A stretch of 64,000 nucleotides of DNA, taken from assembly GCA_963701665.1 (NCBI GenBank), contig OY969622.1, positions 569,159 through 633,158 of the forward strand, given 5' to 3'. The first letter of the stretch is position 1; every line of letters begins with the position of its first letter. This document shows positions 8,000 through 53,108 of this stretch, piece by piece. This stretch comes from Candidatus Babeliales bacterium (GTDB lineage: Bacteria > Babelota > Babeliae > Babelales > JANWKD01). The position numbers and the translations under genes were made by a program. Below the pieces are notes generated by a model. That model was not told the origin of the DNA and ran no database searches. It saw nothing but the letters and a program-made list of their open reading frames with translations.

Positions 8000-10381
8000 A
8001 TGTTATTCCTTATTTTAATATGCGTATATTTCAATTTACCTTTTACTTCAAACGGGATGGAGGAAGGTAATAATAATCTTCCAATCATAATTGTAAACTC
8101 CCACACTAATTCAATATCTAGATTTGATCCGCATTCACAAAGGTTTGCCAAGCATGATGCATTAACAAAAAACTTATCGCATCTTACTAGACAAGAACTA
8201 GGACAAATGTATCGGCAAGCATGTGAAATACGTGATCAAAAGATTGCTATCAATAAAGAAATAATTTTAGATGTTCATGCATATAATGCAAGCTTAAATT
8301 ATGAGCCGCTTGATAAGGTTTTCACACTTTATAACTATCACCTAGCAACACCAGATAAGAACTTGATTTCGACAGTTGATAAGTTAATTCCTATTTTTTA
8401 TACCCCTCAAGGATATTCTAACTTAACAGTAAATGCTTATGAAAGAACTATCGTTGCTCGTATTGTTGCAGACGCATTAAAAGTTAAACTACCTTATGCA
8501 ATATATGTGGAAACTATCACAGCGTACGCCGCTCAGTATTCAGAATTTAAAGAAATTGTTGCACAGGAGACTCGATGGTTTCCTTGGGCCAAAGAAAAAG
8601 TTACTGAGTGGTGCGGATTAATTAAAGGTCATTTTTATGCAAAGCACCCACTGATAAATATCGATGTGCTGAAAAAGAATATTTTAGCACATGGGTTTAA
8701 GCAGAGTTTATTGAAAATCAGTGATTCTCGTTTAAATACTTTCCCTGCCACGAATATGAAAAAAGTCGATGCTCAATGTTGTTCTGATGTAGCGCATGCG
8801 CTTGGATGGCTACAAAAGAATAAAGAATTGATCAATAAGGACATTCTATCATGTAAAAGTCTTGATGCTGTTCAAGATTATCTGAGCGGTACTCCTGTTG
8901 AGCGTAGGCTCGTGCCTTTAACAGCAAATTTACTGAATGAAATACAACACGGTATTGAATCTAAAGCTGAGCAGTCTCATCTTATGTGGTTGCAAGAATC
9001 ACTCCTGCAGTTAGATACATGTGCAGGAAAAGTATGCGCTGAAAGTTCATATGAATCAAAAGCGGCCTTAATTGGTTTGATTTCTGAAATCGAAACTCAA
9101 TTAGGTGTATTAACACGCCCAGAATTACGTAGATCGCCTTCAATGGAAAAACTTTTTGCTCCACAGACAGATTTGCTTTTTACCAGTAAAGATGTAGGAG
9201 CAATATCCTTAGCTGAGCTAAAAAAATTTTCTGGGACTCCTGAACAGAATGCTTTGAACCTGAAAATGATAGATCATGTTGAAAAAATTCATTCATGCTA
9301 TGAAAGCATAGTTGATAATGACGCTAAGCAAATTATTGAAACATATAATGCCCTCATTTCACAAGCTCATGAATTAACCAAAGATAGTTATATTACTGCC
9401 GCTGAAGGCGTTTTTACTGTTGCAAAAGACTTAGTTGAAATTGCGCTAATTGATCCTCCAGTTAATGAGATTTGTGATTATCTCGAGCAAACAGTCTCAA
9501 ATCCCCAAGATTATGTTCTCAAAACAGTCGAAGGATATAAATCAGTTGCGGGTGCTATTTTAAATGCATGTAAGTATACTTTGGAGAGACCATCGGCGGC
9601 TCCTGAGCAAAATTTTCAATTTGCATTGAATCAAAATAAAGCGATTCACGCATTCTTTGACGGGTGGGAAAAGCTCGAAGTTCAACAGAAAAAAGAATTT
9701 TTAGCACAAATTGTAGTTGATACGGCAATTAATAAAGTTGCTTATTCGCTGCCAAAATTAATTTTGAAAATAGGCGGCGGTTCCTCTGCAATCAGTTCTG
9801 CGATACAAAAAGCGGGGTCTGCTTTTGATAAAATTGATCCAGGTGCTTCAGGAGTTGTTGCAGTTGCTGTTCCTGCTAACATTGCAGAAAGCGTCGTTGG
9901 AGCCATAGAGCATGTTGCCGAAGTTGTGGGATCAATACCTGTTGCGGTTGCTACAGCAGGGATACAAGATACCGTTATGTTGTCAGAAGCGATGCAGGGT
10001 GGTGGAAATAATGTGCCTAATAAAACGTATGAATGCCCTGCTTCATGTCATTTTTTTGACAAAGAAGATAAAGTATTACGCATTATTGATAATGAAGTTA
10101 TAAAGAATATTAGAAGTGGAAGTGCTTTAAAATTAGATGCGCATCATGCATTTAATAATATGATTGATAATTATGTGGAATATGCTCAAAAATTCGAGCT
10201 CGTGGGCGATGATGGTATTAGTAGACCTTTATTCCAAATTAAAGGATCTCTAAATGGTGTCGAAGGAATCTTTGAATGGATTGTAGATCCGAATTCTTTA
10301 AATGGAGTTACACATAGATTATTCATTAAAAATGGGATTATTACTGGTAAACCAAGCATTTTTCCATCTATGAAAAAATAA
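8000..10381 (+). CDS. Large hypothetical protein with a G/A/V-rich linker and a distinct ~120-aa C-terminal module (candidate toxin/effector domain)
   Basis: 793-aa ORF starting 28 nt after the AAA gene, with a hydrophobic N-terminus (MLFLILICVYFNLPFTS). The low-complexity segment GGGSSAISSAIQKAGS...AVATAGIQ...QGGGNN is followed by a compact tail (ECPASCHFF...LDAHHAFNNMIDNY...GIFEWIVDPN...VTHRLFIKNG). Confidence 0.6.
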   Translation: MLFLILICVYFNLPFTSNGMEEGNNNLPIIIVNSHTNSISRFDPHSQRFAKHDALTKNLSHLTRQELGQMYRQACEIRDQKIAINKEIILDVHAYNASLNYEPLDKVFTLYNYHLATPDKNLISTVDKLIPIFYTPQGYSNLTVNAYERTIVARIVADALKVKLPYAIYVETITAYAAQYSEFKEIVAQETRWFPWAKEKVTEWCGLIKGHFYAKHPLINIDVLKKNILAHGFKQSLLKISDSRLNTFPATNMKKVDAQCCSDVAHALGWLQKNKELINKDILSCKSLDAVQDYLSGTPVERRLVPLTANLLNEIQHGIESKAEQSHLMWLQESLLQLDTCAGKVCAESSYESKAALIGLISEIETQLGVLTRPELRRSPSMEKLFAPQTDLLFTSKDVGAISLAELKKFSGTPEQNALNLKMIDHVEKIHSCYESIVDNDAKQIIETYNALISQAHELTKDSYITAAEGVFTVAKDLVEIALIDPPVNEICDYLEQTVSNPQDYVLKTVEGYKSVAGAILNACKYTLERPSAAPEQNFQFALNQNKAIHAFFDGWEKLEVQQKKEFLAQIVVDTAINKVAYSLPKLILKIGGGSSAISSAIQKAGSAFDKIDPGASGVVAVAVPANIAESVVGAIEHVAEVVGSIPVAVATAGIQDTVMLSEAMQGGGNNVPNKTYECPASCHFFDKEDKVLRIIDNEVIKNIRSGSALKLDAHHAFNNMIDNYVEYAQKFELVGDDGISRPLFQIKGSLNGVEGIFEWIVDPNSLNGVTHRLFIKNGIITGKPSIFPSMKK

Positions 10382-10386
10382 ACAAA

Positions 10387-10911
10387 ATGAAAATTGAAAA
10401 CATTTTTTTAAAAATTTTTAAGGAAAATAATATACCGATCTCCTGGAAAACAATTATTATAGGAAGAAAATTAGGACTTGCGGATTCTAAGCTTATAGAT
10501 GAATATGCAACCCAATATCTTCTTGATAACTATAAAATTGAAAATCCGTATATTATTGCATTAGCAAGTGGGGTAAATGATAATGAAATCGACTCTATTT
10601 TAGATAATCTTACACGATTATTAAATTTAGAAGCAACGTTAAATGCTGAACTTGAAATTAGAAAATGGAGATATGCACAATTAAAAAAACTTTTATTGAA
10701 AAAATACAAAAATAATGAATTATTATACAAAATAGAAGAAATTTATGCTGATTTCTCTTATCCTGAAGATATGCGGCATTTAATATATTATATTCCCAGT
10801 GGCAACTTTGATACATCAAAACACACTAAAGAAGAATGTCAACAACGTTTGATTAATCTCTTTTATGCATTTTTACAAAAAGAGCAATCAGAATTATCAA
10901 ATCAATGTTAA
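10387..10911 (+). CDS. Hypothetical cytoplasmic protein (candidate cognate immunity/partner of the upstream C-terminal module)
   Basis: 174-aa ORF starting 5 nt after the upstream stop. It has no signal peptide and is helical. I recognise no motif. Confidence 0.5.
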   Translation: MKIENIFLKIFKENNIPISWKTIIIGRKLGLADSKLIDEYATQYLLDNYKIENPYIIALASGVNDNEIDSILDNLTRLLNLEATLNAELEIRKWRYAQLKKLLLKKYKNNELLYKIEEIYADFSYPEDMRHLIYYIPSGNFDTSKHTKEECQQRLINLFYAFLQKEQSELSNQC

Positions 10912-10920
10912 CAAATTTTG

Positions 10921-11106
10921 ATGATGTATTCCCGCTCTTTAGATAAAATTCAAAAATTAGGAAAAAATTATGGGGTAATGATCGATTGGCAAAATAAAAT
11001 ATTATTAGATTGTTCAAATTCCATTTTTTCTGGTTTATACGAGGACATCTTAAATGTTATTTATGAGCAAAAATTATCATTTAATAACGAATGTAAAAAA
11101 ACCTAA
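10921..11106 (+). CDS. Small hypothetical protein
   Basis: 61-aa ORF with an ATG at 10921, 9 nt after the upstream stop and 9 nt before the next gene. Coding status is supported only by this tight packing. Confidence 0.3.
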   Translation: MMYSRSLDKIQKLGKNYGVMIDWQNKILLDCSNSIFSGLYEDILNVIYEQKLSFNNECKKT

Positions 11107-11115
11107 TGCATAGTT

Positions 11116-12366
11116 ATGTTCACTATCTTTTCAAGCAACTGGATTATCATGTATCGAAAATCTTTAATCTATAAGACAATAGTTATTCTTCTAATTATGA
11201 ACCATCTTTCACTGATAGGTAACACCTCTTATCAAGAGTTTCCTCCTGAATTACTTCAAGTTGCTTCTGATGAAATTTCTCGTTTATTAGCAGAAAAAGA
11301 AGAAACGTTTAAGAAAAAAAATACAGAAATATGCCTTTCAAAAAAGGACATTATTCTTGATTCAGCACTCATTACTCAATTGATTTCGCAATGTCCAGAA
11401 AGATTGAATGATATTATTAGTGCATTAATAATGCGGAATCAATTTAATGATGATATCTATCAAGAATTTATTCCGCATCATATTGTTCTTGTTGGGCCGC
11501 TTGGTGTTGGCAAAAGTAGTTTGGCCAGAGCTATTGCACAAGCAGCTTGCGTTTCTTATACCTTTATCAAATCAATGGCATTAGCTAATGAATATATTAA
11601 TTCAGGGCCAAGTAATCTTATGAGGATTTTTGATCCTATATTAGAAACAGATGAACCGTACATTGTTATTATTGATGAATTACAAACAATCATTAGAAGA
11701 AAAGATAACAATGAATTTGATATGGCAACGGCAGAAGTACTATGGATGTTGCTTGATGAATGTAAGGCAAAAAATAACATTATGATAATTGCAACTGCTA
11801 ATGATATTTCTGATTTGCCCGAACAGCTAAAAAGCCGTTTTGCAAAAAGTGTCTATGAAATAAAATTGCCAGGTTTATTAGCGCGTGAACGCATTATTAG
11901 TCATTATATAGAAAACAGTAAGGCAGATAGCAGCAATATTACTCATGCAGTTATTAAAAATTTAGCGCAAAAAACAAGAGGTTTTTCACCGCGTAATTTA
12001 GAAGATCTTATTGAAATAGCTTTTTCACGAGCATTTTTTAGAGCTAAACGAGAAAATGACTTTGTCATATCTCTTACTAAAAAAGATTTAGACATAGGAT
12101 TTGCTCATATTAAAAAACAGAAAGGAAGCTCGTACGGTATACCAACATGGTGTAAAAATTTCGTAAAATTATTGGGTCCTGTGGCTACTATTTCATTGGG
12201 ACTTACTGTGCTTCAGATAACGATACAATGTTTTCTGCAATATTATGATCATCAGCGATATTTATCTTTGATACAGCAACATCATAATGATTTTGTACGC
12301 ATTAATGGACAGCATAACAAAGCAATATTACAGCAGAATGAAAGATTTCATCAAGCAAAAATGTAA
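11116..12366 (+). CDS. Classic-clade AAA ATPase, paralog of 6355-7971, with hydrophobic N- and C-terminal segments
   Basis: Walker A is IVLVGPLGVGKSSLARAI, Walker B is IVIIDELQ, and the SRH-like region is IIATANDISDLPEQLKSRF. The N-terminus is SLIYKTIVILLIMNHLSLIG, the C-terminal TM is LLGPVATISLGLTVLQITIQCFL, and the tail is Q/H-rich. Confidence 0.8.
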   Translation: MFTIFSSNWIIMYRKSLIYKTIVILLIMNHLSLIGNTSYQEFPPELLQVASDEISRLLAEKEETFKKKNTEICLSKKDIILDSALITQLISQCPERLNDIISALIMRNQFNDDIYQEFIPHHIVLVGPLGVGKSSLARAIAQAACVSYTFIKSMALANEYINSGPSNLMRIFDPILETDEPYIVIIDELQTIIRRKDNNEFDMATAEVLWMLLDECKAKNNIMIIATANDISDLPEQLKSRFAKSVYEIKLPGLLARERIISHYIENSKADSSNITHAVIKNLAQKTRGFSPRNLEDLIEIAFSRAFFRAKRENDFVISLTKKDLDIGFAHIKKQKGSSYGIPTWCKNFVKLLGPVATISLGLTVLQITIQCFLQYYDHQRYLSLIQQHHNDFVRINGQHNKAILQQNERFHQAKM

Positions 12367-12396
12367 TAATTTTTCAATCATAAAAAGGATTTTCTT

Positions 12397-14070
12397 ATGC
12401 AAAAGAGAATGCCATTGAGCTTTTTCATAATTATTATGATTAGTTTTAAGCTCTGTGCCTGGGCAAAAGATAATGGTAAAAAAGATGCAGATTTTATAAA
12501 GAGGTTTGGAGAAGAATATTTTAAGGTACCTGTTGAGAAGGATGATAATAACGATCTATATATTAATGCATGTGAATTAATAAATCTTTTCCAAACAATT
12601 GTCTTTGAAACAATGAATGATATATTTGCTGAAATAACAGATGAAAGGCTTGAAGGATTTCAGATTGAGCAATCCCCTACTAAGCAACCTGAAAAGGTGA
12701 CTCTATATACAAGTGTAGCAGAGCAAAATAATAAAACGGGGCATGAAAAAATTGTACAATTAATTTCTACTATTTTAATGCAAAAAAGTTTAAAGGAAAC
12801 AGTCAATTTTGTTAAACAAATATCGCCAGAAACAAAAAAGGTCATTAAAGAAATAATTAATACTCCTGATAAACATTGGAGTAATACATTTTTACACAAA
12901 GCTTCAACCGCTTTGGAAGTAGAGCAACTTTTGTTACTTGGAGCAGATCCTGAAATAAAAAATGAGTTAGGGCGAACACCATTAATGGCGTTACTTTTTG
13001 ATGGTAAATGTGAAGCAGCCAAGATGCTTATTTCGAAATTACCTTCATTTGATTTTTCTATGGTAGATAATGAAGGTGCAAATTTAACACTATGTGCTGT
13101 TCGCAGTGGTGATACTAAAATTGTAGATTTATTCTTGAAAAAAGGTGGGAGTTTAAATAGCGAAGTAGGCGGAGTAACACCTTTACTGATAGCCGTAGGT
13201 GCAAGAAATATACCAATGGTTAGGTATTTATTAAAGTTAGGAGTTGATGTTAATCAGGCGATTACCGCTACAGATTTTTCGGATTCTAATCGGGAAAATC
13301 TGCCTGATACCTCTGATATTATAGGGGTAACGCCGCTTATGATGGCAGCCTCAAATGACGATGGTGAGATGGTAAGATTATTATTAAAAGCAGGAGCGAA
13401 TGTTAATGCAATGTGCCTAGATGGTTCAACAGCATTGATAAAATCTTTGGCAGGATCAAATGTGTTTAAGATCCTAATTGATGCTGGTGCAAATGTTAAT
13501 GTAACAACACATAATGGGTTTACGGCTTTATTAGCTGCAACAATAATACAGCCAAATGCTATTATGCCATTATTGAAAGCTGGGGCGTTGGCTAATAGTG
13601 AAATTTCTAAGGACTATTTTATTCCCGATATGCCTTCTGTTAATTTGCAAGGGTTAACGCCATTATTAATGGCGATAAAAAATGCACCAGATACTGTACT
13701 GTTTCTTATTGATGCTGGTGCAAATATCAACCACAGAACAGATGAAGGACTTACACCTCTCATGATGGCGGTCATTTCAAACAACATTGATTTAATTTCT
13801 CAGTTACTTGAAAAAGGAGCGCAAGTAAATTGTGCAATGATATGTGACAGTCCGTATCTAAAAGTGCTGTTGCAAGATTGTTTATCATCAAAATTTGATG
13901 CAGACACAACAGGATTAACGCCACTTATGATAGCAACAATTTTAGATGAAGCGCCTACCGTTACTATTTTGCTAAAGCATGGTGCTGATAGAAATGTAAA
14001 AAATGCAAAGGGACTTACTGCTTTGAATATGGCAATCATGAAAAATATTGCAGAGATATTATCAGTTTAA
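12397..14070 (+). CDS. Secreted ankyrin-repeat protein
   Basis: The N-terminus is signal-like (MPLSFFIIIMISFKLCAWA). At least 8 ANK units are present, for example GVTPLMMAASNDDGEMVRLLLKAGANVN and GLTPLMIATILDEAPTVTILLKHGADRN. Confidence 0.85.
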   Translation: MQKRMPLSFFIIIMISFKLCAWAKDNGKKDADFIKRFGEEYFKVPVEKDDNNDLYINACELINLFQTIVFETMNDIFAEITDERLEGFQIEQSPTKQPEKVTLYTSVAEQNNKTGHEKIVQLISTILMQKSLKETVNFVKQISPETKKVIKEIINTPDKHWSNTFLHKASTALEVEQLLLLGADPEIKNELGRTPLMALLFDGKCEAAKMLISKLPSFDFSMVDNEGANLTLCAVRSGDTKIVDLFLKKGGSLNSEVGGVTPLLIAVGARNIPMVRYLLKLGVDVNQAITATDFSDSNRENLPDTSDIIGVTPLMMAASNDDGEMVRLLLKAGANVNAMCLDGSTALIKSLAGSNVFKILIDAGANVNVTTHNGFTALLAATIIQPNAIMPLLKAGALANSEISKDYFIPDMPSVNLQGLTPLLMAIKNAPDTVLFLIDAGANINHRTDEGLTPLMMAVISNNIDLISQLLEKGAQVNCAMICDSPYLKVLLQDCLSSKFDADTTGLTPLMIATILDEAPTVTILLKHGADRNVKNAKGLTALNMAIMKNIAEILSV

Positions 14071-14081
14071 AGTTGTTCAAA

Positions 14082-14106
14082 AGGATGAATGTGCAACATT
14101 CATCCT
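14082..14106. terminator. Hairpin between convergent genes
   Basis: 10-bp stem AGGATGAATG / CATTCATCCT with a 5-nt loop, between the ANK gene (+) and the flavodoxin-like gene (-). There is no strong U-tract. Confidence 0.45.
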
Positions 14107-14115
14107 CTAATGAAA

Positions 14116-14784
14116 TTAAATAACTAACTCATCAACTAACTTTTTAATTGTCTCAAGATGTGCATGATATGATGTTGGATTTATTTTATAGACATCATGA
14201 ATCATGTAGTTTTTAATATAAGGGACGCCCATAAATCTAAATGTGTCAGTTATTTGCCGTTGTGCTGGATGTTCAATGAAAAAAGCATACCAGGGTCTTT
14301 TAGCGATTGCGGAGTTTACAGAAAGAACTTTAGTAATATGATGCAGTGGTTCTGCATGTACACCGCTCTTATATGCCCACGCATAGTTTGTTATAAGATC
14401 GATCCATGCTTTAACAATTGCGGGTGTTGAATACCAATACACAGGAAAAAAGAGGATAACTCTATCAGCTTGCAAAATTAATTCTCTATTCTGTTTAAAG
14501 AAATGGGATTCTTCTAGAAATTCAGGATCATGGCGATAAAAAGGGATTTCTGCGGCATAATCGTAAAGATCTAAATTGAGTAGCTCAACCGTATGTTTTG
14601 TCGCTAAATAGTCAGAAATTGCATCATAGAGCGAATAGGTTAATGATTGCTTAATGTCATGGGCAACGACGAGCAGAACTTTGACTCGTCCCGCGTGTGC
14701 ATGTTCGAGCGATAGTGCATATGCACTCGTTTGGTAGCCAAAAAAGCTAAACAAAATAATAAAAATAATATTTTTCAAAACCAT
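14116..14784 (-). CDS. Flavodoxin-like fold NAD(P)H:quinone oxidoreductase family protein with an N-terminal signal-like extension
   Basis: VKVLLVVAH..., RVILFFPVYWYSTPAIVKAWIDLI matches the Flavodoxin_2 family motif (FP.wW...Pa.lKgwiD). A ~30-aa N-terminal extension precedes it (MVLKNIIFIILFSFFGYQTSAYA). Confidence 0.7.
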   Translation of the reverse strand: MVLKNIIFIILFSFFGYQTSAYALSLEHAHAGRVKVLLVVAHDIKQSLTYSLYDAISDYLATKHTVELLNLDLYDYAAEIPFYRHDPEFLEESHFFKQNRELILQADRVILFFPVYWYSTPAIVKAWIDLITNYAWAYKSGVHAEPLHHITKVLSVNSAIAKRPWYAFFIEHPAQRQITDTFRFMGVPYIKNYMIHDVYKINPTSYHAHLETIKKLVDELVI

Positions 14785-47064: not shown

Positions 47065-48882
47065 ATGAACATAAGAATGATAGGTGTTTTCCTGGTATGG
47101 CTTTTACCTTGCTTTGGTATGGTACATAATTCAGAAATCAAAAAAGATCTGGCTGTTCTTACCCAGAAATTACAAGCTTTGGGCCTCAATAAAGAAGAAA
47201 GAAAAGGAACTGTCAGATTTACTTCTGAGACCTTGGCAAGTTTAAAAGATTTTGCTCAACGACATGGCATTAGCGACCTTAATGAGGCATTAAGATTAGC
47301 CCTATCAGGGGCGGGTGAAGCGACCGGAGGCCCAGGACCTATACCGAGCTTTCAACCTGTGCCAACCCTAGGCCCTGTGATGCCACCTCCGCCTCCTCCG
47401 CCAGCTCCTCCTGTAGCAGAAGTTAAAACTGGGCCCCCAGTGCTTTCGGCTATAGAAGAAATTGTTGCCGGTGGCAAGAAGCTTAGTCATGTTGGTGGTG
47501 AGAAAAAAGAGTATTCCAAAGAAGAAAAACTAATTTCTGATACAGAATTTTTGAAAGCATTTGATGCCAACACATTTGAAGAGCTCCTGGATAATATAAG
47601 GAATCTACGGGCTGATCCAAAGTATTTAAAAAAAGAGTCGATTAAAGAACCAATAAGGCTAGACCAACCGATAAATCTTGATTTAAATGAGATGCTGACG
47701 ATGAGCAGAACTCTTTTAGCTCTGCTTGAAAAAAAAAATAAAGTTTCCCTTAAACAGATTAATCATGGCTATCTAAAGAGTTATATGTTTGATCCTTCAT
47801 TGTTTGACGAAGGGTATTTTGAAAAACTGAATAATTTGGTTGGTGCTGAATCCGTCAGCCCAAAAAAAACGGAAGTTGCTTATAGTGCGTTTAAAGAAAT
47901 TATGCGTGAACTTATTAATGAAGCGCCTAATCTAGATTATCTTTTAGATGTCATTAAAAATCTGCCTTCTAATCAGAAAAGGATTGTTGTACCCCTTGAA
48001 AAAGCTAAATTTTTGACATTGGAGGGAAAGGATTTTAATACTTTTGAAGCTTTGAAAAATTATAGCAATGCTGGGCGAGATGAAAACTTTGTTAAGGAAC
48101 TAAAAAAGATTGTAAAAGGGTATGAACAAGAAGAAGAAAAAATAGATACACTTTTAGCCAATTATTTAGTCTATGTTAAGTTTGATAGTGCTGTTATGAA
48201 TATCTTTAGAGATAAAGGAATAACGTCAAGTCGCGAAGTTTACGATGCGCTTCAGGAACTGAATGTTGATGAAAAATATGATAAAGCGGTTATACAACCT
48301 TTACTAAAAAAACTTACGGCATTGAAACGTACTCCTCAAAAAATTTATCTTCTGTTAAAACAACGTATAAAACATTCACATCTTGTTGAAAATATAGAAC
48401 AGGATATTAGAAAAAAAATAGAACCATATGGATTATTAGTAATGTTGCTGAAATTTTTCAATAAATATTTTGCAAACAATAATGATCCTCAATTTCGTCT
48501 GATATGTGTAAAAGCGCTGAAAACAGCACTTTCAGATTTACATGAGCATGGTAGCTTTATTAACGTAATTAAAAAAATGAAAAAGAAATTAAATAAAGGG
48601 AATGAGACTCTCAATAGGAATATTATTGCGATGAGTGATGATTTTCAGAAATTTCTAAAAAAGACATCGGGTAATAAAGAGAGCTATAAAAAAGGGACTA
48701 TTAATCCAATGTTAAATTATTTGATTCCTGAAGCTCTTAATGCACTTAATGAAGCTAAATCAGATGCTTTTACTAACGCCGTCGGTGGTTTTATTGCCAA
48801 CGCTAAAATGCCTGGATTGCTGGAAAAATATAATGCTTTTGCTGCACTATTTGATAAGAATTTAGCAAAGGCGTTTGCATAA
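47065..48882 (+). CDS. Secreted protein with a polyproline tract and a WH2-like motif (candidate actin-targeting effector)
   Basis: The N-terminus is signal-like (MIGVFLVWLLPCFG). MPPPPPPPAPP (47380-47412) is followed 8 aa later by PVLSAIEEIVAGGKKLSHV (47438-47493). The rest of the protein is helical and K/E/N-rich. Confidence 0.6.
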   Translation: MNIRMIGVFLVWLLPCFGMVHNSEIKKDLAVLTQKLQALGLNKEERKGTVRFTSETLASLKDFAQRHGISDLNEALRLALSGAGEATGGPGPIPSFQPVPTLGPVMPPPPPPPAPPVAEVKTGPPVLSAIEEIVAGGKKLSHVGGEKKEYSKEEKLISDTEFLKAFDANTFEELLDNIRNLRADPKYLKKESIKEPIRLDQPINLDLNEMLTMSRTLLALLEKKNKVSLKQINHGYLKSYMFDPSLFDEGYFEKLNNLVGAESVSPKKTEVAYSAFKEIMRELINEAPNLDYLLDVIKNLPSNQKRIVVPLEKAKFLTLEGKDFNTFEALKNYSNAGRDENFVKELKKIVKGYEQEEEKIDTLLANYLVYVKFDSAVMNIFRDKGITSSREVYDALQELNVDEKYDKAVIQPLLKKLTALKRTPQKIYLLLKQRIKHSHLVENIEQDIRKKIEPYGLLVMLLKFFNKYFANNNDPQFRLICVKALKTALSDLHEHGSFINVIKKMKKKLNKGNETLNRNIIAMSDDFQKFLKKTSGNKESYKKGTINPMLNYLIPEALNALNEAKSDAFTNAVGGFIANAKMPGLLEKYNAFAALFDKNLAKAFA

Positions 48883-50011: not shown

Positions 50012-50186
50012 GGGAAATAATATCCTTAGCAAATAAAACAATATCACTTCTAGTCTGCTTTAAAAAACAAATTTTATCAAATAACGCATCATAGTAATTT
50101 TATAAATTGAAATTATTGATTTTAAATTAATGTCTTTTGTATTCTATTAATAACTATAAAGGGCAGAGTAATTTTTGAGGAACAGT

Positions 50187-53108
50187 ATGATAAAAAAGCG
50201 GTATATTCTTGGGCTTTTGTTGAGTGTTATTTGTATTACCGTATTAGAAACCATGGTTGCAGGTGAACGTGTTGTTGAAGAAAAACCATGGAAACCTGCT
50301 GAAGAGCCGAAATCTGTTGAGGAAGCGAAAAGGCTTCAAGAAATAGCTCGTAAAGAAGAATTGGCGGCAGAAAAGAAGCTTGAAGAAGCAAAAAAGGCAA
50401 AAGACACCGAGGAGATGCGTAAACAACAGGCTCTTGTGGATAAAGCACAATTTGATTGGAATACTGCTGATGCAGTTATAACTAATTTAGGTGTACTGCA
50501 AGATCCTGCTCAATCTAAAGAAATGAAAAAATCCGCACAGGAAACATTGGAGAATCGAAAAATTGAGATAACCCAAAAGATTAGAGAATATGAAAAAGCA
50601 TTAGCAGGAACTGGTACATCTACAGGAACGGGCACTCAAAATGCCGTTAAGAGCTATCAAGAAAAAGTTGCAACTGAATTACAAGGACTCTCAGAGAAAC
50701 AAATCTTGGGAGAATTAAAAGCAGAGATTGATGCTCTTGTATCAGGTGGTTATTCATCTACAGCAAAAAAACAGGGAAGAGATATTCCCTATAGTGAGCG
50801 TAAGGCTATGCTTGAGTTCCTAGAAAATACACTCAATGCACGAGTAAAAACGCAAAGTCCCGAAGTTGCTGCATTGAAAAACAGTATTGTTGATACGATT
50901 GAGAATATTGATAATCTCGGTAAACAAAAACCTATTGCTAATAATGCCATAGATAAAAAGTTTGATCTTTCAGAAAAGATCACGGCAGATCAGATTAGGC
51001 TTTTAAGAAAGCAATTAGTGAAAGATGTTTTTGAAAAAGATTTTAAAACACCTGCAGAACGATTAAAAGCGTTGAATGAAATGCAAAAAATTGTTGATAC
51101 CTATGATATTTACGATGATAAGATTCAGCCCGTGATGGATAAAATTGCCCATCAACCTGATATTGTTGAAGCAAAATTAAAAGAGATTGAGATTGCTAAA
51201 ACTATTGCAGCAAAATTTAATGACGCTTTTGTGACATTAAATGATATGTATGAAAGAATTAAATCGTTAAAATATAACGAGCAAGCGACAATGTTAAAGG
51301 ATTTCCAAAATATGTACAATAAATTTCTTCAAGCCAATGAGAAATCTCCAACATTGGATGCCCAGCAACAATCTGCGCTTAAACAAAAATACGATGACGT
51401 TGTGCGACATGCACAAGAAGTCGATGCATTCTTAAAAAATCCAAAGCAGACAAATCAAACGGCCCTAGAAAAAGATTTAAAATTAGCGGAAAAAATCCCT
51501 TCTGATCAAATTAAAGCCATCATGGATCGTATAGAACTCTTTGGTTATACTAATGCAAGGGAATTAACAGCAAAAGATATTGCTACGTTGAAGGATATAC
51601 GAGACGCTATGGATCATTTCAAATTACAAAAAGAGTACTCTGATGAATATGGGTTCATTGATGATCTTATTAAAGATGCCACAAAATCTGTTATTTCTCT
51701 GCCAGAAGGTCTTACCAAAGAAGATGTTGCATCGACATCCATATTGGGTGAAATTGGTGAAAAAATTACGAGTGGTGTGCAAAACATTAAAGATTTTTTT
51801 GTTAAAGATGGTGCCATAATCGTTAAAAATGCCGCTGAGATTGTAGTATATCCAGCGAAAAAAATTGCAGAAGGCTTTAGTTATATAATTCGCGAGACAG
51901 GGAAGTTTTTACAAAAAACATTCACGGCACCTGAGTTTGTTAATAAAATGGCGGATGCCCCAGAGATGCTTGATGATGTATTAACGAGCATAGCTAATCT
52001 TGATACCGCAGGTGGCGGTGTTGTTAAAGGAGTGCTCCGAGCTGATATTGGCATACAACAAGTTTTATTAACCGTTGTTGGACAACAAGATGTAGCTGAT
52101 GCATTAGGTGAATTTGCTAAGATTTCTTATAAAGAGCATGTCAATGATCCTATGGTGCAAAAAATTAAAAGATATGTTGATAAAGTTGGCACTGTTGGCA
52201 AAACGCTTAAATCAATCATGGAATTCCCTAAATATATCGGTGAAAAATTAGAGCAAAGTGTAAGAACCAAAAAAGAAACAGCGTCGTTGAGAGAAATAGA
52301 TGAAACGCAGCGACTGATTGAAGAAGAACGTGCGAATATTACATTAGCAAAAGGAGAAGCTAATAAAGAGATTCCAGGTATTAAGCAGTTAGGCGATTTA
52401 CTATTCAAACTGTCGAACTATGTCAGTGATCGTGTATATAACACTAATAAAAGTATTGAAACGGCACAACAAGACTATGAACAAGCGCGCAAAGACTACT
52501 TCGTGGCATTGGGAGTTGATTATAGTGCAAACTTAACACCACAACAGATTGCCGGGAGAATTGAACAAATGAAATTAAGTAGAAATGATAATTTCATTCA
52601 AGCAACAAATAAATTGGCTGACGCGGTTGATCAGTTGGCTTTTGCCTACGAAGTATTGGTTAATAAATTAACGAGTGTTGAGACTAATTTGAAATTCGTT
52701 GTTGATGCATGGGATATGATTATTATATCCCCCGATGGGCAAAATACAGAGCTTCCGGTAATAATAAAAAGTATTTTTACGCTCCGCGACCTTAAATTAG
52801 CTTATTTAGAGGCAACGAGAAATGGCGTTTTACAAATGCAATCTGACGTTGCTAAATTTAAAGATTCTCCATCAGGATTATTGGCTGATGATGCAGTAAC
52901 GCGCTATAGAAGAGTTGTTGATGATAAAATATTTGAGACAATTCAAGAATATGCAAATGCCATGAATCAAATTGATAGAGCAATTGCAGGGCAAAAAGAA
53001 TTTATTGAATCAAAGTTACCAAAAGTAGTGGATGAAACATCAGGCTCAAGCAGTACTGGCACAGGAAACGTACCACCACCAGATACCGGTGGCGGTGGAT
53101 GGGATTAA
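50187..53108 (+). CDS. Large secreted coiled-coil protein
   Basis: 973 aa with the N-terminus MIKKRYILGLLLSVICITVL. Long K/E/Q-rich helical segments are present, along with a GTGTSTGTGT tract, and the C-terminus is SSSTGTGNVPPPDTGGGGWD. Confidence 0.6.
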   Translation: MIKKRYILGLLLSVICITVLETMVAGERVVEEKPWKPAEEPKSVEEAKRLQEIARKEELAAEKKLEEAKKAKDTEEMRKQQALVDKAQFDWNTADAVITNLGVLQDPAQSKEMKKSAQETLENRKIEITQKIREYEKALAGTGTSTGTGTQNAVKSYQEKVATELQGLSEKQILGELKAEIDALVSGGYSSTAKKQGRDIPYSERKAMLEFLENTLNARVKTQSPEVAALKNSIVDTIENIDNLGKQKPIANNAIDKKFDLSEKITADQIRLLRKQLVKDVFEKDFKTPAERLKALNEMQKIVDTYDIYDDKIQPVMDKIAHQPDIVEAKLKEIEIAKTIAAKFNDAFVTLNDMYERIKSLKYNEQATMLKDFQNMYNKFLQANEKSPTLDAQQQSALKQKYDDVVRHAQEVDAFLKNPKQTNQTALEKDLKLAEKIPSDQIKAIMDRIELFGYTNARELTAKDIATLKDIRDAMDHFKLQKEYSDEYGFIDDLIKDATKSVISLPEGLTKEDVASTSILGEIGEKITSGVQNIKDFFVKDGAIIVKNAAEIVVYPAKKIAEGFSYIIRETGKFLQKTFTAPEFVNKMADAPEMLDDVLTSIANLDTAGGGVVKGVLRADIGIQQVLLTVVGQQDVADALGEFAKISYKEHVNDPMVQKIKRYVDKVGTVGKTLKSIMEFPKYIGEKLEQSVRTKKETASLREIDETQRLIEEERANITLAKGEANKEIPGIKQLGDLLFKLSNYVSDRVYNTNKSIETAQQDYEQARKDYFVALGVDYSANLTPQQIAGRIEQMKLSRNDNFIQATNKLADAVDQLAFAYEVLVNKLTSVETNLKFVVDAWDMIIISPDGQNTELPVIIKSIFTLRDLKLAYLEATRNGVLQMQSDVAKFKDSPSGLLADDAVTRYRRVVDDKIFETIQEYANAMNQIDRAIAGQKEFIESKLPKVVDETSGSSSTGTGNVPPPDTGGGGWD

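Follow-up and report, generated by a model that had tools for sequence, protein, structure and literature searches.

A predicted polymorphic toxin locus with an Ntox19-type tip and an Imm38 gene in a Candidatus Babeliales bacterium

The window analysed here is a stretch of 64,000 nucleotides (nt) from a Candidatus Babeliales bacterium (GenBank assembly GCA_963701665.1, contig OY969622.1, positions 569,159 to 633,158, forward strand). It contains a locus in which a gene for a 793-amino-acid (aa) protein, hereafter the toxin, is followed by two small open reading frames (ORFs). A sequence-only reading of the window had likened this arrangement of a 793-aa ORF, a 174-aa ORF 5 nt later and a 61-aa ORF after a further 9 nt to a polymorphic toxin/immunity pair. 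The raw DNA has exactly this layout. The features of the locus are the following (window coordinates):

8000-10381, + strand: toxin ORF, 793 aa, stop codon TAA
8000..8056, + strand: predicted Sec-type signal peptide MLFLILICVYFNLPFTSNG, residues 1-19, from hydropathy and conservation, followed by MEEG
8057..9754, + strand: helical carrier scaffold, residues 20-585, without known domain
9755..10009, + strand: G/A/V-rich pre-toxin segment, residues 586-670, with the GGG junction at its end
10010..10381, + strand: putative exchangeable toxin tip, residues 671-793, with the Ntox19 signature motifs
10073-10369, + strand: conserved domain of predicted Ntox19 type, residues ~692-790, within the tip
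10387-10911, + strand: immunity ORF, 174 aa, beginning 5 nt (acaaa) past the toxin stop
10921-11106, + strand: small ORF, 61 aa, from an ATG 9 nt past the 174-aa ORF (62 aa from an alternative TTG start at 10918)

The toxin tip and its Imm38 partner

The 174-aa protein belongs to the Pfam family DUF2247 (PF10004; E 2e-27, 96.2 bits against a cut-off of 25, residues 11-166). This family has been described as the immunity family Imm38, mostly alpha-helical and paired with Ntox19 and NGO1392-like HNH nucleases as toxins (Zhang et al. 2012, PMC3482391). The protein had been proposed to be an immunity partner without a signal peptide, and this agrees both with its membership of a published immunity family and with the lack of an N-terminal hydrophobic segment; the idea that it is a SUKH protein was not borne out, as Pfam shows DUF2247/Imm38 instead. 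In our alignment of the family (A3) W20 is nearly invariant. The window protein has aromatic residues (LFYAF) near its C-terminus, and the conserved residues W20, G26 and P126 are intact in it. No solved structure was detected when the protein and its profile were compared with the PDB chains.

The pairing of the tail, i. e. the C-terminal domain of the toxin, with DUF2247 extends far beyond the window. A genome scan with one genome per species yielded 128 tail loci, 80 of which were kept for neighbour analysis; these represent Bacillota, Pseudomonas, Vibrio, Neisseriaceae, Moraxella, Endozoicomonas, Bacteroidota, Rickettsiales, Babeliales and others. The immediate neighbour of the tail is an ORF of 101-202 aa in 73 of the 80 loci, with a gap of -47 to +68 nt. 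Homology of these ORFs to the 174-aa protein was found for 69 by direct phmmer search and for 73 by jackhmmer, and all 73 score as DUF2247 in Pfam. An adjacent DUF2247 gene is also present in L081, L085 and L088, and a contig from a viral collection carries the pair of tail and DUF2247 as well. Elsewhere the tail is carried by proteins with RHS repeats, by MafB and by filamentous-haemagglutinin proteins with DUF637, which matches the carrier range reported for Ntox19 (PMC3482391). Across the loci, identity to the window is 40-62% for the tips and 18-35% for the immunity proteins, and the pairwise identities of tips and immunity proteins are correlated (Mantel r 0.82, 0/2000 permutations), which may partly be due to shared phylogeny.

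Tip and immunity gene also stand out by base composition. The stretch 10010-10911 has a GC content of 0.276 compared with a mean of 0.368 and is the lowest in the 64-kb window; its value is reached by less than 1% of 900-bp windows, and the ten lowest of these all lie at the toxin locus. The GC content at third codon positions (GC3) is 0.17-0.19 in the cassette of tip and immunity gene and ~0.25 in the adjoining genes. Because of the DUF2247 match, the recurrent adjacency of tail and DUF2247 and the position of the lowest-GC segment, the layout of toxin and DUF2247 gene is not a chance arrangement.

The tip carries all five Ntox19 motifs, in the order D713, H716, D738xxxR742, E759, H772xxF775 (D43, H46, D68xxxR72, E89 and H102xxF105 in tail numbering). 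Their contexts are LDAHHAF for H716, D738-G-I-S-R742, IFEWIV for E759 and H772-R-L-F775, and in the tail alignments (A1, A6) every signature residue is either invariant or conserved to 90% or more. Ntox19 was first defined by Zhang et al. 2012 (Biol Direct 7:18; archetype NMW_1482) as an alpha+beta domain of ~100 aa with a predicted BECR fold that bears the signature D, H, DxxxR, E, HxxF. It was predicted to be a metal-independent RNase with a two-histidine signature and was found associated with Imm38 or Imm40 (PMC3482391). Candidate catalytic residues of the window tip are D713, H716, D738, R742, E759 and H772. Among 5.8 billion proteins the tail has 26 relatives at 43-68% identity. Neither the tail nor linker plus tail gave a match in Pfam and NCBIfam scans.

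A structure predicted for the tail with AlphaFold2 (AF2) from a 27-sequence alignment has a mean pLDDT of 77, with a core above 90. Besides short helices, the model contains a helix spanning tail residues 49-58 and four strands that run antiparallel; this predicted topology is compatible with the BECR fold. With Foldseek, the best PDB match of this model was to unrelated carotenoid-protein domains (E 0.24), and searches of the PDB with the tail by sequence and by profile found no relative. When predicted viral structures were searched, Bodo saltans virus and megaviruses provided the best matches with their ankyrin-repeat proteins (probability 0.99, E 0.04-0.07, 76 residues, rmsd ~3 Å). Ntox19 has been reported in mimivirus fused to ankyrin repeats, and in effectors of amoeba endosymbionts (PMC3482391); the structural matches thus fit the published mimivirus fusion independently. 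Motifs, immunity partner, carrier range and giant-virus match together, rather than the archetype sequence, support an assignment of the tail to the Ntox19 type.

The AHH motif at residues 714-716 had been taken as a hint at an HNH/EndoVII-type (Tox-AHH) DNase. A further conserved histidine follows it, and Imm38 also pairs with the HNH-fold NGO1392-like toxin (PMC3482391). However, the tail has no match to the Pfam HNH, AHH and Ntox models even at E up to 10; H715, the first histidine of the motif, is variable among relatives, so that just the second is kept (xxHAF); the CxxC motifs known from NGO1392-like nucleases (PMC3482391) are missing; and the predicted helix with a four-stranded sheet differs from a beta-beta-alpha-metal finger. 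The conserved H716 and H772 fit the two-histidine signature of Ntox19 instead. We rejected the AHH/HNH nuclease on the missing Pfam match, the variable first histidine and the differing predicted topology, and consider it extremely improbable.

As a second alternative, the tail might have no enzymatic role and be a domain for structure or binding, next to a functionally unrelated DUF2247 gene. Neither family has an experimental function and there is no significant match to a solved structure, which would suit such a domain. Yet the adjacency in 73 of 80 loci, found across Bacillota, Pseudomonadota, Bacteroidota, Babeliales and others and on unrelated carriers, would then be hard to understand, as would the invariance of charged and histidine residues and the fact that the tip is swapped at the same position with recognised toxin domains, namely Ntox21 and Ntox35 (see below). 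This explanation is hardly credible.

Tail homologues also occur as short stand-alone proteins of 110-205 aa that start with MGG/MGA...GG.FG:

P0002, P0005, P0007, P0010, P0012, P0013, P0015-P0018, P0021, P0022: short stand-alone tail homologues

In several of them a Gly/Ala-rich helical segment (IPGLDTF...IPVDLARGDF...VPFVGEIADTAKLAK) precedes the toxin domain. These proteins have the look of orphan toxin cassettes, or of a short carrier class in its own right.

Exchange of tips on a conserved carrier

Relatives of the carrier are rare. Toxin residues 1-660 have just 18 representatives among 1.84 billion clustered proteins; a word-indexed protein search returned two scaffold relatives, with the single sequence as with an alignment, and a metagenome scan with the single scaffold protein returned none. 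Among the named genomes retrieved, only one, a metagenome-assembled genome (MAG) of Candidatus Babeliales, has a scaffold relative. The scaffold has no match in Pfam and NCBIfam scans; in the whole 793-aa protein Pfam finds no FHA/DUF637+VENN, RHS repeat, LXG or MafB N-terminal domain, and a sequence search of the whole toxin against PDB chains gave nothing meaningful. The carrier scaffold is a lineage-restricted family of a few small-genome bacteria, and scaffold, junction and AAA neighbour are undescribed in Pfam and the searched literature.

The aligned scaffold relatives have in common a signal-like N-terminus, the helical scaffold, the G/A/V-rich segment and a Gly-rich junction. Conserved scaffold motifs are RRxxPxxANLxNEI, RPExxxSPSxExL, G-T-x-EQN and F-x-x-G-W-x-x-L-x-x-QQKKEF. 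An AF2 model of the full-length protein from 16 sequences is of low confidence (pLDDT 52.7, pTM 0.29) and shows an all-helical scaffold. Hydropathy of the toxin N-terminus peaks at 1.55 at residues 1-2 (19-residue window), and the hydrophobic N-terminus, which is common to all scaffold homologues, ends at [A/G/C] followed by ME[DE]. The NCBI gene call (P0045, 774 aa), recorded on a contig of 1.34 Mb, begins at M20 and thereby drops this conserved segment; an exact look-up of this product matched no contig. A Logan assembly has the 793-aa form as its gene call.

The G/A/V-rich stretch of residues 586-670 (KLILKIGGGSSAISS...SEAMQGGGNN; position 9760 corresponds to residue 587) is moderately hydrophobic, with a hydropathy of 1.2-1.7 over residues 615-662, and is disordered or predicted with low confidence in the AF2 model. 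A PT-TG domain was considered for this linker and rejected, as Pfam gave no match. The sequence-only reading had described a G/A/V-rich linker followed by a compact tail. Both parts are present. The linker does not belong to the variable module: like the scaffold it is conserved, with 80% identity to P0028, and evolution has placed the breakpoint beyond it, at G669/N670. The toxin homologue P0028 is 80% identical to the window protein through residue ~659 and unrelated beyond. At the DNA level its contig (L092) is 84.7% identical to the window over 9315-10005, and the homology stops inside the codon of G669.

The scaffold homologues bear at least six different tips, as expected from the earlier suggestion of variable C-terminal tips; a uniformly conserved C-terminus, named beforehand as the finding that would speak against it, is not what the homologues have. 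The tip classes are:

Ntox19-like: window, P0040, L001 (Babeliales MAG)
Ntox35: P0033, above the Pfam threshold; P0027, P0031, P0032, P0034 and P0046 alike
Ntox21: P0041, an E. cloacae-type CdiA-CT
Unnamed, three classes: P0028/P0038; P0030; P0035

The toxin of L001 is 37% identical to the window toxin over residues 280-792. P0036 has an Ntox35 score of 20.1 bits, slightly under the cut-off of 23.6 bits. Among the scaffold relatives the downstream gene changes along with the type of tip, which substantiates its description as a cognate gene:

Ntox19-like tip (window, L088, L001): DUF2247 downstream
Ntox21 tip (L089): three tandem CdiI_N genes downstream
Ntox35 tip (L091, L081): downstream proteins of 223 and 238 aa, homologous to each other
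P0035-type tip (L090): 113-aa gene downstream
P0038-type tip (L086): 103-aa gene downstream
P0030-type tip (L087): a 304-aa DUF2247-containing protein, a 176-aa DUF2247 protein and, farther on, a homologue of the Ntox35-type immunity protein

In the last of these loci (L087, 8057-8971) the 304-aa protein with the DUF2247 match adjoins the unnamed tip of P0030. Possibly a new immunity module has been fused to DUF2247 here, or DUF2247 has a third type of toxin as its partner.

The orthologue of the window locus in a related organism is L081; the two share DNA homology in the scaffold, in the gene for Imm38 and at the beginning of the AAA gene downstream. In L081 an Ntox35-like tip and a 238-aa gene are inserted before a retained 176-aa DUF2247 protein, which is 44% identical to that of the window. 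As judged from these sequences, this arrangement is the classic footprint of a tip replacement, with an orphan Imm38. The 61-aa ORF of the window could be a remnant of the same kind. Over 40 aa it is 45% identical to the N-terminus (residues 1-41) of the protein from the 113-aa gene in L090 (E 1e-9, against a small local ORF set); a Pfam scan gave no match, and otherwise the ORF is found only in near-identical assemblies. From this one short match it is probably an orphan immunity gene, truncated and belonging to a different type of tip.

Differently armed loci also coexist. A conspecific assembly that is 99.0% identical over 8.5 kb bears a second scaffold toxin, P0038, ~440 kb away, and one JGI contig bears two scaffold toxins, P0030 and P0041; hence single genomes hold several differently armed loci. 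P0038 has 1029 aa (L086 5001-8413, ENA ERZ25039540 contig_2269, ~1.10 Mb) and a tip with an LQHELTES motif, and is followed by the 103-aa ORF and then a WD40 protein. By sequence comparison, the polymorphism of tips on a conserved scaffold, a downstream gene particular to each tip and exchange at the GGG junction are shown.

Exchange of this kind is known from other polymorphic toxins. MafB/MafI of Neisseria (the 'T2SS (MafBN)' class of Zhang et al. 2012) combines a Sec signal peptide, which in the window toxin is a predicted one, with a conserved carrier at the N-terminus and exchangeable tips, Ntox19 among them, at the C-terminus; as in the window-type loci, its immunity gene lies directly downstream, and there are orphan cassettes. 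A Neisseriaceae MAG locus (L011) combines MafB with the window-type tail and DUF2247. In contrast, the window toxin lacks the MafB/DUF1020 domain in Pfam, its carrier is an unannotated helical family, its junction is GGG after a hydrophobic G/A/V-rich segment, and an AAA+ gene is conserved upstream. With CdiA-CT/CdiI and Rhs-CT/RhsI the window locus shares the modular tip with cognate immunity, the recombination at a short junction (VENN in CdiA, PxxxxDPxGL in Rhs, GGG in the window) and the displaced orphan immunity genes left downstream. The window-type tail itself occurs elsewhere on filamentous-haemagglutinin/DUF637 and RHS carriers, and in L089 a scaffold relative has the E. cloacae-type CdiA-CT (Ntox21) as its tip and three CdiI_N genes behind it. 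Unlike these systems, the window toxin has no FHA or RHS repeats and no VENN, and its carrier is far shorter and helical. The closest likeness is to the Ntox19/Imm38 pair predicted in 2012 (Zhang et al. 2012, PMC3482391): the window locus shares its motif signature and DUF2247/Imm38 pairing, the tail family its carriers, phyletic spread and giant-virus ankyrin relatives, and nothing contradicts membership. The pair of toxin and immunity domains is thus already known, whereas the carrier bearing it is undescribed.

Proposed mechanism

We consider it very probable that the locus is a polymorphic toxin system composed of a secreted carrier, a predicted Ntox19-type RNase tip and an Imm38 antidote. 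The toxin would comprise a Sec signal peptide, the helical scaffold, the G/A/V-rich pre-toxin segment and an Ntox19-type toxin domain of ~100 residues. The Sec system would export it via the N-terminal signal and, more speculatively, the hydrophobic pre-toxin segment might help membrane passage or the release of the tip. According to the published prediction, the tip would be a metal-independent two-histidine endoRNase acting through H716 and H772, aided by D713, D738/R742 and E759. The cytoplasmic Imm38 protein, probably co-transcribed with the toxin, would bind and neutralise the tip; its family role, its adjacency to the tip and the correlated divergence of the two point to this. It would thereby shield the producer from its own toxin prior to export and from toxin delivered by siblings. 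In this interpretation tip and immunity gene travel together as one low-GC cassette that is replaced by recombination at the GGG junction, and displaced immunity genes stay behind as orphans, the 61-aa ORF being one such candidate remnant.

Several points weigh against this interpretation. Ntox19 is without enzymatic or toxicity characterisation, here or in the literature, and is still uncharacterised according to a 2023 review. A model of Ntox19 is absent from Pfam and NCBIfam, and the tail is assigned to it by motifs, immunity partner, carrier range and giant-virus matches. When a BECR profile shared by the tail family and the Ntox35-like tips was sought with hhalign, the probability was 0.6%. 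The signal peptide has no basic n-region and was judged on hydropathy and conservation alone, and shared phylogeny may account for part of the Mantel correlation.

The same two genes could also be an intracellular addiction module similar to toxin-antitoxin systems, or a non-functional relic in decay. BECR-type RNases are frequently found in toxin-antitoxin systems of type II (PMC3482391), the genes are tightly coupled, and fragmented copies exist in some assemblies. Near-identical loci are present in three other assemblies. In L082 (1654-3995) the toxin is split into pieces of 140, 67 and 569 aa, and in other assemblies the immunity gene appears as fragments of 71 and 81 aa. However, the alignment of L082 with the window over 8.5 kb (99% identity) has 9 gap openings, and two assemblies that are 99.9-100% identical have the locus intact; the split copies are therefore likely to be assembly indels and not true pseudogenes. 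Moreover, the tip is fused to a signal-bearing carrier of 670 residues that is conserved across deep divergence, and the toxin signature as well as W20, G26 and P126 of the immunity protein are all intact. Either form of this explanation is most unlikely.

Genome context, target cell and significance

The toxin locus is flanked by two genes for AAA+ ATPases:

6355..7971, + strand: AAA+ ATPase, 538 aa (Pfam AAA, E 2.6e-25), with a signal-like N-terminal segment
11116..12366, + strand: second AAA+ ATPase, 416 aa (Pfam AAA, E 1.5e-22), the downstream flank of the locus

An AAA+ gene lies directly upstream of the toxin in all five loci with a full-length scaffold (window, L086, L087, L090, L091); it is absent in L088 and L089, whose toxins have the pre-toxin part only. 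The upstream ATPase belongs to the classic clade, and its closest solved relatives are AAA domains of the p97/CDC48 type. The AAA ATPases of the toxin loci are paralogues (24-59% identical), and the complete ones have an N-terminal signal segment of the same kind as the toxin. A second AAA gene is found downstream of the locus in the window, L087 and L081; the 416-aa protein is 45% identical to the downstream AAA of L087, and its region has 81.6% DNA identity to the end of L081. In the 64-kb window we found no other copy of the flanking AAA ATPases and, by tblastn, no further copy of the scaffold or DUF2247. The upstream ATPase is context for the toxin and possibly its partner; it may handle the toxin or be a co-located effector.

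All genes from 6355 to 14070 are on a single strand with spacings of 5-30 nt. A terminator-like hairpin with a 17-bp stem and a T-run lies at 6198-6236 (+), after a gene for a 218-aa membrane protein, and no second such site was found in a scan of 6100-14300. The single strand, the short gaps and the lone hairpin fit co-transcription and suggest that the block of AAA, toxin, immunity, AAA and ankyrin genes is one transcription unit. A promoter scan was uninformative (33 sites observed, 38 expected).

Other genes in the window code for UvrA, FtsK, a Mur ligase, MutS and GatA, and the toxin locus is thus chromosomal. With ~1.3 Mb, the genome resembles that of a bacterium in obligate association with eukaryotic cells. 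The window also has many genes for ankyrin and orphan proteins with a signal. Three tandem signal-bearing ORFs of 444, 435 and 390 aa lie at 36837-40671, the first being an ankyrin-repeat protein; in the 444- and 435-aa ORFs the signal is followed by the motif N(D/N)AVLPRAIFNQ, which suggests that they are tandem paralogues. Pfam gives no domain at E <= 1e-5 for the large ORFs at 38-3256 (1072 aa), 47065-48882 (605 aa) and 50175-53108 (977 aa), of which the latter two begin with a signal-like segment.

About 12 of some 30 ORFs with a signal-like N-terminus have a methionine exactly at the mature start, for example TLA/MNPEGEQ, SNG/MEEG, IFS/MEEKK and LYP/MDEKQ (the slash marks the boundary). 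In the window these are the following:

6355, 8000, 19253, 25859 (- strand), 36837, 38195, 39499, 47065, 50175, 54518 (- strand), 59480 (- strand), 60305 (- strand): ORFs with Met at the boundary

On other contigs, homologues of the scaffold toxin and the neighbouring AAA proteins show it too. This pattern may be an export or cleavage signal specific to the lineage, or reflect dual initiation that yields secreted and cytosolic isoforms.

The context bears on the target cell. The toxin could be a host-directed effector that enters a protist or amoeba cell and cleaves host RNA, with Imm38 protecting the producer during synthesis only; this differs from the interpretation given above in the target, not in the parts. 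The genome size of ~1.3 Mb argues for it, as do the neighbouring signal-peptide-bearing ankyrin, AAA and WD40 proteins, which are typical of host-manipulating bacteria, and the restriction of scaffold relatives among the named genomes retrieved to the Babeliales MAG. Further support comes from the occurrence of Ntox19 in amoeba-endosymbiont effectors and mimivirus (PMC3482391) and from the giant-virus ankyrin proteins as the best structural matches of the tail. On the other side stand the orphan and heterogeneous immunity genes (in L081 and L087, the three CdiI genes of L089 and the 61-aa remnant) and the rapid replacement of tips. Both are hallmarks of inter-bacterial conflict, in which resistance to the toxins of other strains is selected. 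In addition, host-directed toxins with this architecture, such as Ntox43, have no adjacent immunity genes (PMC3482391). While lifestyle and giant-virus relatives keep a host target in play, the orphan immunity genes and immunity arrays favour a conflict of bacterium against bacterium, and we regard a host-directed role as rather unlikely.

Scaffold, pre-toxin segment and signal-bearing AAA+ ATPase might constitute a new polymorphic-toxin delivery system, specific to host-dependent Babeliales/Dependentiae-like bacteria, that excludes competing strains from the same host cell or attacks the host. This idea is tentative, and we hold it to be doubtful.

With a compact, well-delimited pair of ~100 aa and 174 aa and an intact signature, the locus is a test case for the Ntox19/Imm38 prediction of 2012. 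The evidence for cassette exchange is unusually clean, consisting of a breakpoint at base level, an orthologous locus with a replaced tip and orphan immunity genes. A probable obligate associate of eukaryotic cells is an unexpected host organism for a polymorphic toxin, and in the searched literature no paper connects Dependentiae with such toxins. If the interpretation holds, the AAA+ ATPase gene kept upstream would code for a candidate new component of toxin handling, and strains of these bacteria would compete with each other, or manipulate their hosts, by means of interchangeable RNases.

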